Source: Eledone cirrhosa
Lineage: Eukaryota
Direction: 5' to 3'
NCBI GenBank assembly: GCA_964016885.1
Contig: OZ024756.1
Location: forward strand, 2,232,001 to 2,296,000
Length of the DNA stretch: 64,000 nt
A model generated the notes under the pieces. The model searched no databases and was not told where the DNA came from. It worked only from the letters and a program-made list of their open reading frames with translations. Made by a program: the position numbers and the translations under genes. Shown one piece after another: positions 3,527-43,051 of this stretch (position 1 is its first letter; the number at the start of each line of letters is the position of its first letter).

Positions 3527-3720
3527 TTTTACCAGTTTAAAATAGTAAGGCCATTGTTCGACAGAGTACTCGATACTTAGGATAGTTGTGTTTAAATATG
3601 GTAGACAGGTAAACCCAACGGCTGAGCTCTTGCTGTTTCAACACCAAATTCTAGACTCAGTCAGAAATGTACTTTTGAAACGGTAAGAGCTCAGCCGTCG
3701 GGCCCCAACAGTCTACTGTA
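3527..3720. mobile_element. Hairpin insertion carrying hammerhead 3' halves (PLE-type terminus)
   Basis: Inverted arms 3614-3641/3675-3702. The + arm reads GAAA-CGGT-loop-GCCG-TC (stem III + GUC). Shares the gagtactc(g/a)atac motif with the elements at 4844, 16923 and 43080. Confidence 0.6.
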
Positions 3721-3819
3721 TATATAAATATCAGGATAGAACCAGTTTAAAACTAATTAGATCATTACTCGATTACTTGGCGTAGTAGAATATGACTATG
3801 ATATAAAGAGTAACTCCTT

Positions 3820-4688
3820 ATAATATATATATATATATATATATATATATTATATATATATATATGATATATATATATATATATAATATATATATATATA
3901 TAATATATATATATATATAATATATATATATATATATATAATATATATATATATATATATATATCTAATATATATATATATATATATATATATATATCTA
4001 ATATATATATATATATATAATATATATTATATATATATATATGATATATATATATAATATATATATAATATATATTATATATATATATATATATCTAATA
4101 TATATATATATATATATTAGATATATATATATATATATATATATATATATATATATTATATATATATATAATATATATTATATATATATATATGATATAT
4201 ATATATAATATATATATATTATATATATATATATATAATATATATATATATATATATTATATATATATATATATATATTATATATATTATATATATATAT
4301 ATATATATTATATATATATATTATATATATATATATATAATATATATATATATATATATATATATTATATATATATATTATATATATTATATATATATAT
4401 ATATATATTATATATATATATATATATATATATATTATATATATTATATATATATATATATATTAGATATATATATATATATATATATATATATTATATA
4501 TATATATATATATATATATATATATATATATATATATATATATATATATATATAATATATATATATATATATATATATATATATAATATATATATATATA
4601 TATATATATATATATATATATATATATATAATATATATATATATATATATATATTATATATATATATATATATATATATATATATATA
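3820..4688. repeat. Long interrupted (TA)n microsatellite, about 870 bp
   Basis: Direct reading. Confidence 0.98.
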
Positions 4689-4843
4689 ATTTTGAGTATG
4701 TATTGGTTGTTTACCGACACTTCAGTATGGAGGTTACAACACTCAACGAGTGCGCAGACTTGTTTACTCCGGAGTAATGTAAAAACAAGAAGTGTAAGTC
4801 AACAGGTTAATATATATATATATATATATATATATATATATAT

Positions 4844-5000
4844 AGGAAAATGTTCAAGAGCCCCGACAGCAGAGCTCAAGCCGTTTCGACGGCTATTTCT
4901 GGGCTAGTAGGGGTCCTATTACCCACTCTACTACCCAAAGTATTGAGTACTCTGGTGCGTTATGGTCCATCTGGTTACTTACCACACTTCCTTCGTTATA
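4844..5000. mobile_element. (TA)n-flanked short element, same family as 16923-17062 (inverted)
   Basis: The reverse complement of 4915-5000 matches 16923-17009. The minus strand has GAAA-CGGC-ttgagctct-GCTG-TC (hammerhead stem III + GUC). Confidence 0.75.
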
Positions 5001-5076
5001 TATATATATATATATATATATATATATAAAAGTAATAACAACAGTAACAAAACAAACGGCACAGTAACAGAAGAGA

Positions 5077-5113
5077 GTCTTAACGTTTCGGACACTAGAT
5101 CTTCATCAGAAAA
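5077..5113 (-). ncRNA. Minimal type I hammerhead ribozyme (PLE-type) within island 5028-5460
   Basis: Minus strand reads tttt-CTGATGA-agatctagtgtcc-GAAA-CGTT-aaga. Palindromic AACGTT stem III; stem I is weak. Confidence 0.6.
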
Positions 5114-5577
5114 TAAAACTAGAAATACAAGATAAATAGAGAGTAAAGAGTGAAGAGAGGAAAGGAACGGCGAATATGAGAAAAAAGATTGAGGAGAAAG
5201 AACAAAAACACACGTGTGTATTCAGTCGGCCATCTTGCAACAAACCGGTACGAAGAACAAAGCTATCTTGCGGTATTTATATTCGAATAGCATATCTAAT
5301 ATTTAACGTTACATTCCGTTATAACAGAATCGATAAAACAAAGTAGTGAGATCGATATATTAAGCATGGTCACAACCCAATAGATGAAACCAATAATAAA
5401 ATGACCGCTCCAACAAAGACATGTAGATATTGCAGAGTATATTAGAATTTGGGGTGGCTTACATTCAGATATATGTCTATATAAATCTCTCTCTCTCTCT
5501 CTGTATATATATATATATATATATATATATATATATATATATATATATATATATATATATATATATATATATATATA

Positions 5578-40395: not shown

Positions 40396-40604
40396 GGTTC
40401 CTCAGTTGTGCGTCCTATCCTTTGTTACTCATTTGGGCTTTCTTATCACTATTTTGTTATTAGTCGCTCCTTTTATTTTCCCCCAACTTTGTTTTAAGAG
40501 AACTTTTTCTGTTGGTTAATAATTTTGTATTTATTAAAAAGGAGGCAAATTGTTAGAATATAAAAACAAATAAACAGTATTCATTATTCATTAATAATAA
40601 TAAC

Positions 40605-40812
40605 AATGGTTTCGTATTTAGGCACAAGGGCAGCAATTTTGGGGGAAGGGAAAGTCAATTAAATTGACCCCAGTGTGTGACTGGTTCTTTACTTCATCGA
40701 TCCCGTAAGGATGAAAGGCAAAGATAACCTCAGCGGGATTTGAACTCAGATCATAAAGGACCGTAACGCTGTGCTGCAAAGCATGTTGTCCGACCCTCTA
40801 CTGACACTTCCG
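40605..40812 (-). mobile_element. Nin-type SINE
   Basis: Reverse-complement match to the family consensus. Confidence 0.85.
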
Positions 40813-41620
40813 CAAACAACAACACCACCAGTAAAATAAACACCAACACCACCAACAGCAACAACACAACCAACAACTCCAACAACAGCAACAACAACTC
40901 CAACAACAACAACAACAACTCCAACAACACCACCACCACCAACAACAACACCAACACCACCAAACCTACCAACAACAACACCACCAAACCCACCAACACC
41001 ACCACCACCAACGACAAAACCAACACCACCAACACCAATACCACCACCAACAACAACACCAAGTTTACCAACAATAGGTGAGAGAATAAAAGATATCTAT
41101 TTTATTCTCTAGAAAATAAAATTATCAAATCGGAAAATATTTTCATGGAAACGAAATGAAATACAATTATTATATATTTACTTTTATGACAATAAACGAC
41201 TATAAACCAATACATAGTATTAATCGAACTGTGTCCATTGTCCTTATCAATATGTAGCTTCCAGATTGTAAGGAAATCGTCTTATTTTAGTTGCTGGCAA
41301 TAAATTCAACTTGAATTATCAAAGACAGAACATTCTAGAAATATTTCCTCACTTCAACGATTAGAAATTATTTCAACGTTAAAATAGAAATATATTTTTT
41401 TCTTTTTTCTGAATTAAACAAAAGTATTTAAAATGAATTTTGCTGTTACCTTTCTTTCTTTCTTTCTTTCTTTCTTTCTTTCTTTCTTTCTCTTTCATTT
41501 TTTCATTTCTTTCTTCTTTTTTCCTTCTCTCTCTTTTTTCTTTCGTTTACTCTCTCACTTTCTTTCTTTCATTACTTTCTTTTTCCCCATTTCTTTCTCA
41601 TATATACATACATATATATA

Positions 41621-42105
41621 GTACCCTCTGTACAGACTTTACTTCTAGTTTTACAATTTATTTGTGGATTTATTCTACATATAACACATTTCTTATTCGT
41701 ACAGTGGGCTATCTTAAAGGGGTATGTCTTGCTTATCAGGGATTTTATGGTAGTACCTGGCTTTTCTACCACTTTAATCTTTAAATGGATCTTTCTTAGG
41801 GCCTTTCTAAACTGGTTAGCTTATTTCCCTCCAGGGGTAGCATCCACAAACATGACACACTGGTATCTCTGGTTGTCATACCACGAAGTGGATTTCCCTA
41901 CCTTATGTTTAGTCCTATCTAACCTATTCCATGATTTGCTCCTGTAAAATGGGCAAAATCCCTTCCATGTCCATCTCCTTGAAGGTCTTATATTTCTCCG
42001 TGGCTCCTTTGTATACTCTGATTCTGTCTCTTTGGTTGTAACCAGAGGACTGCAAGTACCCGCTGTACAACTTTTACTATAAACTACATTTCTAGTTTTA
42101 TACAT
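41621..42105 (-). pseudogene. Penelope-like (Naiad-like) RT thumb/linker/Cys-motif fragment with about 45-bp terminal direct repeat
   Basis: Minus strand: QSSGYNQRDRIRVYKGATEKYKTFKEMDMEG / CPFYRSKSWNRLDRTKHKVGKSTSWYDNQRYQCVMFVDATPGGK*ANQFRKALRKIHLKIKVVEKPGTTIKSLISKTYPFKIAHCTNKKCVICRINPQINCKTR. One frameshift and one stop. The clade call is from remembered motifs. Confidence 0.75.
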
Positions 42106-42145
42106 ATATCTATATACACACACACTTATATATATATATATATAT

Positions 42146-42850
42146 ATATTGTTATACTTTGGGAGGGTCATGTTGCCAATAAGAAACACACGCACCAATT
42201 GCTTTCACTTCAATTTATTATAATAAATTTATAAATTTAGGAATTTATAAATTTCCGGTTGGTTGGTTGGTTCCACAACCAGATGATTGTTTATATATTG
42301 TCAAAGTTCTTTCGTCACACATTCTGTGACCTCTTCAGTGACTGGGGATTCTTTTCTTTGTTTTTGTGCCTCTCCTTTGTTCTGTCCTACGCCATCTTGT
42401 TTTTGTGTGTATGTTGTGTGCTTAGTTTGCGCATGTGTTACATCCGGGTGCCTGTGTGTGTTTATATTCGTTTACTTGTTTGTTTATTTACATGTTACTG
42501 GCTGGTTGTTTGTTCTATGTGCATGTGTGTGTTTTCATTTTGTCCTTAATTGTAAGTTGTGATGTTGCTCCAGAACAAAGGAGAGGCACAAAAACAAAGA
42601 AAAGAATCCCCAGTCACTGAAGAAGTCACATAATGTGTGACGAAAGAACTTTGACAATATATAAACAATCATATGGTTGTGGATCCAACCAACCAATCGG
42701 AAATTTATAAATTCCTAAATTTATAAATTTATTATAATAAATTGAAGTGAAAGCAACTGGTGCGTGTGTTTCTTATTGGCAACATGACCCTCCCAAAGTA
42801 CAACAATATCGGTTTCAACAGACATTTTCAGATAAAGAATCTTGACATAA
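42146..42850. mobile_element. 239-bp inverted repeat + tail with a hammerhead in each arm
   Basis: Arms 42146-42384/42571-42809 with a 186-nt spacer. Confidence 0.88.
42613..42655 (+). ncRNA. Hammerhead ribozyme, minimal stem III (mirror on - strand at about 42300-42342)
   Basis: GTCA-CTGAAGA-a-GTCACA-taatg-TGTGAC-GAAA-G-aa-C-TT-TGAC. Confidence 0.72.
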
Positions 42851-42871
42851 TAATAATAATAATAATAATGA

Positions 42872-43051
42872 TAATATAGAAATGGCTTCTACATGACTAG
42901 AACTGTTTCATTCGGAGAAAATTATCAGAAACGCCCTCCGAATGAAACAGTCCTAGTCCTGTAGAAGCCATTTCTATATTAAATATTTAAACTCTGCTAT
43001 GTATTGAGTACCTTACTTACTGTGGTTACCCCCGATTGGACCCGGGATAAA
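42872..43051. mobile_element. Hairpin + tail, sibling of 36222-36414
   Basis: Arms 42872-42917/42936-42981. The spacer holds a degenerate core (CTGATAA on the minus strand). Confidence 0.85.

Follow-up and report, generated by a model that had tools for sequence, protein, structure and literature searches.

The 64,000-nt stretch of Eledone cirrhosa contig OZ024756.1 analysed here (the window) contains nine verified inverted repeats, at positions 3618-3698, 10642-10741, 14755-15111, 17013-17053, 21413-21501, 33379-33514, 36289-36414, 42146-42809 and 42872-42981. They carry a tail on one side only and (TA)n flanks most ends, which bears out the asymmetric layout described in an earlier, sequence-only reading and upholds its assignment to Penelope-like inverted pLTR insertions in (TA)n. 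These hairpins are real and abundant short copies of Penelope-like elements (PLEs), and their apexes are strongly non-random. Pfam gave no name to any of three open reading frames (ORFs) of the window that were scanned. The copies fall into families A to J, of which B-J are provisionally placed among PLEs by their layout and hammerhead motif:

3532..3658, minus strand: tail arm and tail of a hairpin related to family A, beginning with G and then AGTC at the initiator-like position
3659..3712, plus strand: diverged partner arm of the same hairpin, also starting with AGTC; CTGACTGA on the minus strand is a product of the junction
4845..4997, plus strand: family A insertion, overlooked by the sequence-only reading; the inverted tail-less arm extends to the apex site
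10572..10748, minus strand: family F hairpin with a left-hand tail, apex at 10689-94 in stem II
10770..11153, minus strand: family J hairpin, arms at 10800-10955 and 10998-11153
14701..15111, minus strand: family E hairpin, apex near TC/ACT with the core about 88 nt downstream, loop belonging to the tail-less arm
15918..16080, plus strand: family I hairpin, TTTAAA palindrome at the apex, about 35 nt upstream of the core
16927..17062, minus strand: family A insertion whose junction uses 5 nt of stem III complementarity (a minor class), loop on the tail-less arm
21413..21650, plus strand: family G hairpin; the tail-less arm exceeds the other by 35 nt and stops at +2 of C/AGTT
33305..33514, minus strand: family C hairpin, apex at +3 to +5 of TT/AGTTTC; the core position reads CAGAAGA in long copies
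36222..36414, minus strand: family B hairpin; the tail-less arm extends to C/AGATTC, the start of stem I, 30 nt past TATAAATA
42146..42850, plus strand: family D hairpin; the tail-less arm reads through, 186 nt further
42872..43053, plus strand: older family B hairpin; the core is missing from the tail arm, and the tail-less arm goes as far as the point where stem I begins

The tail of family A, present in 4039 exact copies genome-wide, continues into an ORF and so identifies a parent element: intact 717-aa frames within 3.53-kb tandem units (period 3531 nt). Read by eye, the frame carries the YRDD motif of reverse transcriptase (RT) and a C-terminal VIY...YIG motif of a GIY-YIG endonuclease (EN). 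A Pfam scan of the frame returned no hits and a PDB sequence search nothing significant; it has 2049 homologs, the best of which carries PF01541, the GIY-YIG domain. The tandem layout and the inverted arms upstream of the ORF are those that define a pLTR. By these features the parent is an EN+ PLE with a single RT and C-terminal GIY-YIG ORF. Only family A was connected to an ORF, and none was found for family B in the four 1.4-kb loci examined.

The parent has RWR, DKT, CNCPDRSIC, CNLC and CKH, and a single Cys between VIY and YIG. Measured against the published description of the Hydra clade, it agrees in motifs and target (RWK, DKT, CxCX5C, no CCHH, (TA)n) and departs in length, its 3531 nt exceeding the clade's general limit of 3 kb, which is a tendency rather than a strict criterion. 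In the available part of that description (PMC8557442) these C-terminal EN+ PLEs share RW[KR], DKT, CxCX5C, CxxC, CxH, the absence of CCHH and (TA)n with our element, whereas 'generally <3 kb' there contrasts with a 3.53-kb unit here, and the hammerhead here combines a U3-A8 core with a long stem II, in which the likely promoter sits. The one-sided tail of family A measures 77 nt (+61 to +138), against the 30-40 nt usual for EN+ PLEs in the available portions of PMC3846280 and PMC8557442.

The ribozymes show a type I hammerhead architecture (three stems, with CUGANGA or U3-A8 / GAAA / NUH), and self-cleavage is predicted. Folding of the family A parent gives a three-way junction whose core stays unpaired, although its z of -0.55 is not significant for energy alone. 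Its core, UUGANAA, lies 43 nt upstream of the apex point. All four bases occur at N7, and stem I of family B shows a two-sided change. Rfam gave no hammerhead among the matches listed (150 of 163), most of which were microsatellite-driven matches to miRNAs. Several cores proposed from the letters did not hold. The CTGAAGA at 33447 (33446) is created by a flipped loop base, as long copies have CAGAAGA, and the core seen across 3642-74, CTGACTGA, arises where two arms meet that each begin with AGTC, the core of the related parent lying 43 nt upstream. Likewise, 11 matches to CTGANGA upstream of stem II in family A, considered as candidate cores, are coincidences at junctions.

The sequence-only reading placed the hairpin turn in or beside the ribozyme, which is correct for families A, B, C and F but not for G, D and E, where the apex is 42-88 nt upstream of the core; in family A it lies within loop II. 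In families other than A the apex also peaks at initiator-like sites, with an offset to the core ranging from +43 to -88. A TATA-like box occurs 29 nt upstream of the initiator-like A in family A and at -29 to -33 in families A, B, G and J; this spacing is weak or absent in C, D and E. Family G has TATAAA 33 nt before C/AGTT and its core at +42, while the apex of family J is near an initiator-like C/AG with CATAAA 32 nt ahead of it, and no CTGANGA core was found within 300 nt of the family J reference. In family F the apex is about 11 nt downstream of the start of the parent's core. Other short copies of family D end 0-13 nt ahead of the AAGATGGCG motif, which we take to be YY1-like, about 60 nt upstream of the core. 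Family I, a single case with its apex at the TTTAAA palindrome, gives no such promoter link. Families D-J are small by-catch samples whose ends are limited by alignment.

Mapping the apexes of 71 tail-picked family A copies (of the 4039) shows how sharp this edge is. Limits fall at -4 to +7 around the initiator-like A in 52 copies, at +8 to +46 in 8 and at +47 to +68 in 3, and 8 copies read through, counting as read-through the limits at -283, where the alignment stops at an indel of the reference; none falls between -50 and -5. Apex positions are thus enriched relative to uniform truncation, as the sequence-only reading had anticipated: 52 of the 60 limits within the hammerhead span share one 12-nt window (p about 3e-38, the window having been picked post hoc). 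For family B, with 990 exact tails genome-wide, a hand count of 30 tail-picked loci places 14 limits at 0 to +2, 10 read-throughs and 6 further downstream, two of the six being one duplicated locus. None of the 30 falls between the TATA box, TATAAATA at -30, and the start.

The proposal that RT stalls in the folded hammerhead, the cDNA then folding back onto one of the ribozyme's stems, draws on families A, B, C and F, where the apex falls within the hammerhead or next to it, and on junctions that exploit stem or loop complementarity: L200 through its palindromic loop III, L247 through stem I and 17029-37 through stem III. The use of ribozyme stems stands for these few junctions and is not supported for the main class. 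No family A copy ends in the ribozyme's 5' half, 8 copies read through the ribozyme, and the long copies, like the inverted arms of full-length insertions, extend past it. The same edge also bounds copies that are not hairpins, and in three families the apex lies 42-88 nt outside. Furthermore, microhomology of at least 3 nt was seen in 1 of 50 junctions, and a reading by hand of the nine hairpins first noted assigns the loop to the wrong, tail-less arm in six (36350, 42918, 17029, 14755, 21413 and 42146), to the tail arm in two (33447 and 10689) and to neither in one symmetric case (3642). For the main hairpin class, stalling and snap-back is largely refuted, and we consider it very improbable.

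Motif spacing and the sharp edge together point to the initiator-like A at the apex as the putative transcription start. In independent reads depth drops more than 10-fold upstream of this A (position 2225) in four of four runs, although an AATT site at 2232 confounds this RAD step. Among 13 opposite-strand joints in these reads, 10 begin at 2221-2231. The first 100 non-T extra bases at ends comprise 46 G, 46 C and 8 A; the partner arm fails to account for the base in 11 of 20 G cases and in 4 of 21 C cases (Fisher p 0.025). An extra G as a trace of the cap is only suggestive, and a strong cap-G signal, apparent in small samples, weakened genome-wide.

An RNA end at the apex could instead arise by processing (a splice acceptor, trans-splicing or a nuclease), with twin priming retained. 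[quoted passage not shown] However, the AG itself is included within the limit. The ends show no upstream exon attached: a parent exon followed by GT is matched by 1 of 114 truncated family A ends, a match that the partner arm accounts for, and by 0 of 54 family B ends, a set that includes the 30 query-selected loci. No recurrent leader was found, and a search for a spliced-leader junction at truncated family A and B ends was likewise negative. We regard processing as quite improbable.

The junctions suggest how the putative RNA end becomes a hairpin. In family A copies every end is at +61 or +138 from the initiator-like A, at least 93 nt ahead of the ATG, and each hairpin has one end of each kind, a short site and a tail site. 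In all 50 tail-picked copies the inverted arm finishes at the short site. Where a full-length insertion shows both of its ends, the main strand finishes short and the tail is inverted in 5 cases, the arrangement being the opposite in 2. In 21 of 50 hairpins the tail-less arm is the longer of the two, by at least 20 nt in 7, and in 4 of these 7 the tail arm stops at +55 to +59, abutting the second priming site. Of 50 junctions, 36 are either blunt or contain extra bases. In the window insertion at 4845..4997 the tail partner is nearly without an arm, and the inversion resembles twin priming. Two priming sites, an abutting inverted segment and small junction indels, the hallmarks of twin-primed inversion, are all present.

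Could one tail-primed cDNA have run off the RNA 5' end and primed itself by folding back, with flips and asymmetry arising later by deletion or inversion at the unstable centre of the palindrome? Palindromes are unstable, which counts for this account. Arm haplotypes are identical in 64 of 82 hairpins (0.37 expected if independent), which is compatible with one RNA template and equally with snap-back, while 2 of the 82 pair arms of two subfamilies. Self-priming in rotifer Penelope was inferred from palindromes at inverted junctions, according to the available part of PMC3846280; the junction statistics here favour joining two cDNAs. Asymmetric arms and near-absent microhomology are not expected of a single snap-back cDNA, and the intramolecular snap-back of the sequence-only reading is not supported. 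Such a cDNA is also at odds with the rule of one end of each kind (50/50, plus 7/7 full-length), with tail arms halted at the second priming site, with two-subfamily arms and with flips seen even where the tail of a copy remains an exact match. We consider it unlikely.

Two further explanations concern the copies themselves. If whole hairpins were non-autonomous mobile units, apexes would be inherited from a few founders; the 36350 junction is common to 40 near-identical copies, and some junctions recur. But the 40-copy set was query-selected, the exact junction appears in none of 30 tail-picked family B loci, and junctions vary widely inside one young subfamily. Our candidate of family B hairpins moving whole came from that query-biased set and was overturned by tail-picked sampling, and we give the explanation very little credence. 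That the hairpins are fold-back library or assembly chimeras has a practically negligible probability: single arms carry private mutations, flanks are unique on both sides, the asymmetric ends are fixed, and strand-switch joints also occur in reads from another study.

We consider it probable that the apex is the likely capped RNA 5' end of EN-bearing PLEs, and that two cDNAs primed on both strands at a cut (TA)n are joined there head to head. If the A is the transcription start, the mRNA would contain RT start sites twice, close to its 5' end and again in the 3' pLTR. Both strands of the cut target would prime reverse transcripts (twin target-primed reverse transcription). From priming at the 5' pair would come two short cDNAs, each running off at the cap, whose ends are then joined through 0-2 nt of microhomology or with the gain of a few bases; priming at the 3' pair would yield long copies with inverted pLTRs. 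The parent's promoter is likely to lie inside the hammerhead, and the ribozyme most likely overlaps the apex because it overlaps, or adjoins, that promoter. The 5' ribozyme copy on a family A mRNA would then lack the core and be unable to fold or cut.

A bolder version we advance tentatively, as possible rather than probable. Double-ended RT from two fixed RNA sites would be obligatory, and its commonest product a cap-ended 'strong-stop' cDNA pair. The pLTR promoter would be regenerated only by a cDNA jump to the 3' pLTR, comparable to retroviral strong-stop transfer, and a promoter within the hammerhead would stop the 5' copy from cutting off the cap while the 3' copy stays whole. No published proposal of this model for Penelope (twin priming, strong-stop, pLTR start and hammerhead) was found among open-access papers, judged by titles and abstract openings.

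Known systems supply several of these elements. In the available portions of their descriptions (PMC3846280, PMC8557442), EN+ PLE insertion units share head-to-head repeats, a one-sided tail, partial tandems, (TA)n targets and a hammerhead and start site in the pLTR (PMC8557442 for the start site), whereas here most copies are very small, leader-only hairpins that turn at a fixed point. In vitro, purified protein of Anolis carolinensis Poseidon cuts and extends both target strands and begins at two adjacent internal sites, which bound the tail as they do here, and ribozyme mutants leave insertion unchanged; the start sites are inside the ORF rather than upstream of the ATG, and the available part of that study (PMC11167929) offers no inverted-repeat or 5'-end run-off model. 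The accessible texts of PMC8557442 and PMC11167929 describe the origin of PLE inverted repeats and tails as open.

In LINE-1 (L1) the position of the second priming varies and the two segments usually lie end to end, whereas the second site here is fixed and both cDNAs usually span the same stretch, giving a hairpin. As here, twin priming in LINE-1 uses a second primer at the other target end and leaves an inversion with small junction indels, and untemplated 5' G may reflect the cap (PMC4859970, available part). The minimal U3-A8 hammerheads of Schistosoma PLEs resemble ours in core covariation, palindromic loop III and opposite-strand pairs, which lie 100-700 bp apart there; the available part of that account (PMC4209133) makes no tie to promoter position or inversion point.

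Thousands of young copies beside an intact parent in one genome make these footprints countable, and they suggest a specific cycle of two primings, cap run-off and end-joining. If this is true, PLE promoters could be located from hairpin apexes with no need for RNA data, and many of the 'ribozyme-bearing hairpins' in animal genomes would be by-products consisting of the leader only, in some of which the joining of the arms has created a false core. A minor class of ends falls at the predicted ribozyme cut (L175, L196 and L247), and three family A arm ends at +41 hint at cleaved templates.

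The nine Penelope-like element (PLE) hairpins named in the sequence-only reading are all present in the window, each with a tail on one side only and with flanks that are mostly (TA)n. The host genome (3.0 Gb) is rich in such elements, and random stretches of it held further copies of the same families.

Hairpin families, by window position
Family A: 17013 and 4845; related, 3614
Family B: 36289 and 42872
Family C: 33379
Family D: 42146
Family E: 14755
Family F: 10642
Family G: 21413
Family I: 15918
Family J: 10800

The inverted hairpin layout is already known for PLEs; the sequence-only reading proposed that ribozyme stems set its apex, the point where the repeat turns. 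The family A apex map does not bear this out. An apex-blind tail pattern gave 4039 exact matches, of which 71, drawn from those listed first on contig C1, were read, with positions in the family A parent counted from the A of its initiator-like site (TTT|AGTC or TTC|AGT). Taking whichever arm reached furthest 5', the limit fell at -4..+7 in 52 copies and at -50..-5 in none, the rest lying at +8..+46 (8), at +47..+68 (3) or beyond -135 (8). This is a single sharp edge rather than a series of stem-linked stops; non-hairpin copies have the same 5' limit.

Other families place their limits similarly. Family B yielded 990 exact tails, the first 30 of which were counted by hand (a script missed four anchors): 14 ended within 0..+2 of C|AGATTC and 10 ran on past it; 4 more ended at +6..+9 (two of these represent a single duplicated locus) and another 2 at +14..+22. 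Families C, D, E, G and J were by-catch in 1.34 Mb, small samples in which arms rather than insertions are counted. Limits fell at -7..+9 of TT|AGTTTC in 19/48 family C arms (core +5), at -2..+8 in 4/8 of family G (core +42), at -13..+1 of a YY1-like motif in 7/22 of family D (core about +60; 7 others read through), at -4..+6 of TC|ACT in 4/19 of family E (core +88; most others are alignment-limited subfamilies) and at 0..+7 in 4/13 of family J, whose by-catch copies yielded no hammerhead core. By these counts the apex-to-core offset spans +43 to -88 over families, and the offset to the initiator-like site is about zero. The family E site matches TCACT, described as an initiator-like motif of rotifer pLTRs, the terminal repeats of these elements (PMC3846280). 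Five non-hairpin relatives of family J (L170, L180, L144, L090, L017) share G[TC]GAG as their first bases; in the sole long copy seen, the initiator-like site lies about 5 nt upstream of this point.

In the family A parent pLTR, the hammerhead has stem I starting at -48, a UUGANAA core at -43, stem II strands at -33 (5') and +7 (3'), GAAA at +18 and a predicted cut after +40; a TATA-like TATTTAAA begins at -29, within stem II. The U3-A8 core is as known in Schistosoma PLEs (PMC4209133). The stretch folds into a three-way junction with an energy no better than shuffles (z -0.55), and all four bases occur at hammerhead position 7 among copies. Family B carries TATAAATA at -30 in long copies and shows a two-sided change in stem I; at L062:7750-7945 its hammerhead is directly duplicated, the copies meeting close to the cut site and stem I. 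The CTGANGA strings at family A apexes (11 genome-wide) are junction products rather than ribozyme cores, including the core earlier placed across 3642-74, and the family C "core" at 33446 reads CAGAAGA in long copies and is thus the product of a flipped loop base.

A transcription start at the apex edge fits the TATA spacing in families A, B, G and J, as well as the start position located in the pLTR (PMC8557442). Capped L1 templates leave an untemplated G (PMC4859970), whereas the signal at this edge is mixed: the extra base was G in 46, C in 46 and A in 8 of the first 100 of 6936 non-T cases, and in a check of 20 G-type and 20 C-type loci it was unexplained by partner arm or read-through in 11/20 G-type versus 4/21 C-type arms. 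The main alternative is that a splice acceptor sets the edge, as YAG is present at many apex boundaries and in D. virilis the intron terminates at helix I (PMC4209133); however, AG is retained in copies, and no upstream exon was found attached to them. A small group of copies stops at the predicted cut (L175 with both arms and L196, at +41; L247 in family B), so the putative ribozyme may set a few apexes through cleavage. Ribozyme stems are used at a few junctions.

If, as first suggested, a single tail-primed cDNA stalled in the hammerhead and snapped back, the tail arm should always reach furthest and junctions should show pairing. In the 50 short family A hairpins analysed, however, the tail-less arm was furthest in 21, the tail arm in 17 and neither in 12; leads of at least 20 nt belonged to the tail-less arm in 7 and the tail arm in 1. 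Their junctions were blunt in 17 and carried insertions in 19, with microhomology of 1 nt in 10, 2 nt in 3 and at least 3 nt in 1, and the loop lay on the tail-less arm in 6 of the 9 originally named hairpins. Arm lead is thus near-random and the junctions are end-joining-like, contrary to intramolecular snap-back.

Each family A insertion has one of each of two fixed 3' ends. The inverted arm terminates at the short site in 50/50 short hairpins; full-length insertions with both ends visible, excluding the compound L138, L147 and L150, pair a main end of the short kind with an inverted tail in 5 and show the opposite in 2, and their inverted arms reach at least 110 nt upstream of the A, crossing the ribozyme. 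In 4 of the 7 hairpins with a long tail-less lead, the tail arm halts at +55..+59, right at the second end site (+61), a pattern like that of twin priming. These statistics fit a PLE protein reported to cut and extend both strands in vitro from two adjacent internal sites, the ribozyme being dispensable (PMC11167929). Since 64/82 hairpins carry identical arm haplotypes, one RNA or one source locus per hairpin is the rule; in 2/82 the arms differ at three positions, each matching a different subfamily.

Several loci are compound. L099:979-1645 has an inverted family A arm, then leader and 121 ORF codons, and back at the initiator-like site a full arm and tail, an order suggestive of a template jump at the 5' end of the RNA. 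At L101:1865-1960 a family B arm is directly joined to a family A arm at the latter's TCCAG start, read as a jump from the RNA of one family to that of the other. L194:1020-1509 breaks the simple one-of-each layout with a pair of family A hairpins set back to back, so that a tail lies at each outer end, and L138 and L150 are head-to-head pairs of full ORF copies, forming kilobase inverted repeats.

Three RAD runs from another study and one Logan contig set were mapped to the family A parent pLTR (A = position 2225). Depth drops more than tenfold upstream of 2225 in all four, 10/13 opposite-strand joints begin at 2221-2231, and loose read ends switch to (TA)n at two positions, 2285 and 2365. 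These reads support the reality of the hairpins and the apex position, but are silent on loop orientation, because RAD libraries are amplified and read ends pile up at an AATT site (2232), probably due to the enzyme.

Family A has an intact parent. One copy extends beyond the tail into an ORF, a peptide from which gave 150 scored matches, many within open frames of ~784 codons; twenty genomic stretches retrieved contain intact 717-aa ORFs, some arranged as 3531-nt tandem units. The protein carries the motifs RWR, DKT, CxCX5C, CxxC and CxH but no CCHH, in agreement with the description of the Hydra clade (PMC8557442). Pfam and PDB sequence scans gave no naming match, and its 2049 homologs are nearly all unnamed.

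We hypothesize that transcription begins at the edge, that both target strands prime synthesis and that the cDNAs run off at the cap. In family A, a promoter nested in the hammerhead would disable the 5' ribozyme of the transcript, and the logic of the model requires that a jump to a 3' pLTR regenerate the pLTR promoter. Nesting is not general, as family B and C transcripts would start at stem I and retain the entire motif. Older subscription papers and supplements aside, our literature search found no link of the inversion point to transcript start and no twin-priming proposal for PLEs. The value of the present reading is that an open PLE mechanism can be tested.

Families A and B, otherwise unrelated, share a tail motif, AGTAT[TC]GAGTAC (window 16973, 36263, 43010, 43102), that may serve in protein binding or priming. 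A SINE-like repeat of ~300 nt, abundant and unrelated to the hairpin families, occurs in both orientations at 9688-9782, 22342-22503, 24514-24704, 25763-26655, 36735-37263, 37582-38311, 40601-40821 and 43742-44999. Long open frames lie at 1277-3250 (-), 53033-53929 (-) and 10-896, with no Pfam hits; 10-896 and 53044-53919 show 82% similarity and resemble LINE fragments. Satellite-like arrays, among them a 52-nt tandem at 61534-62262, lie in 55900-64000.
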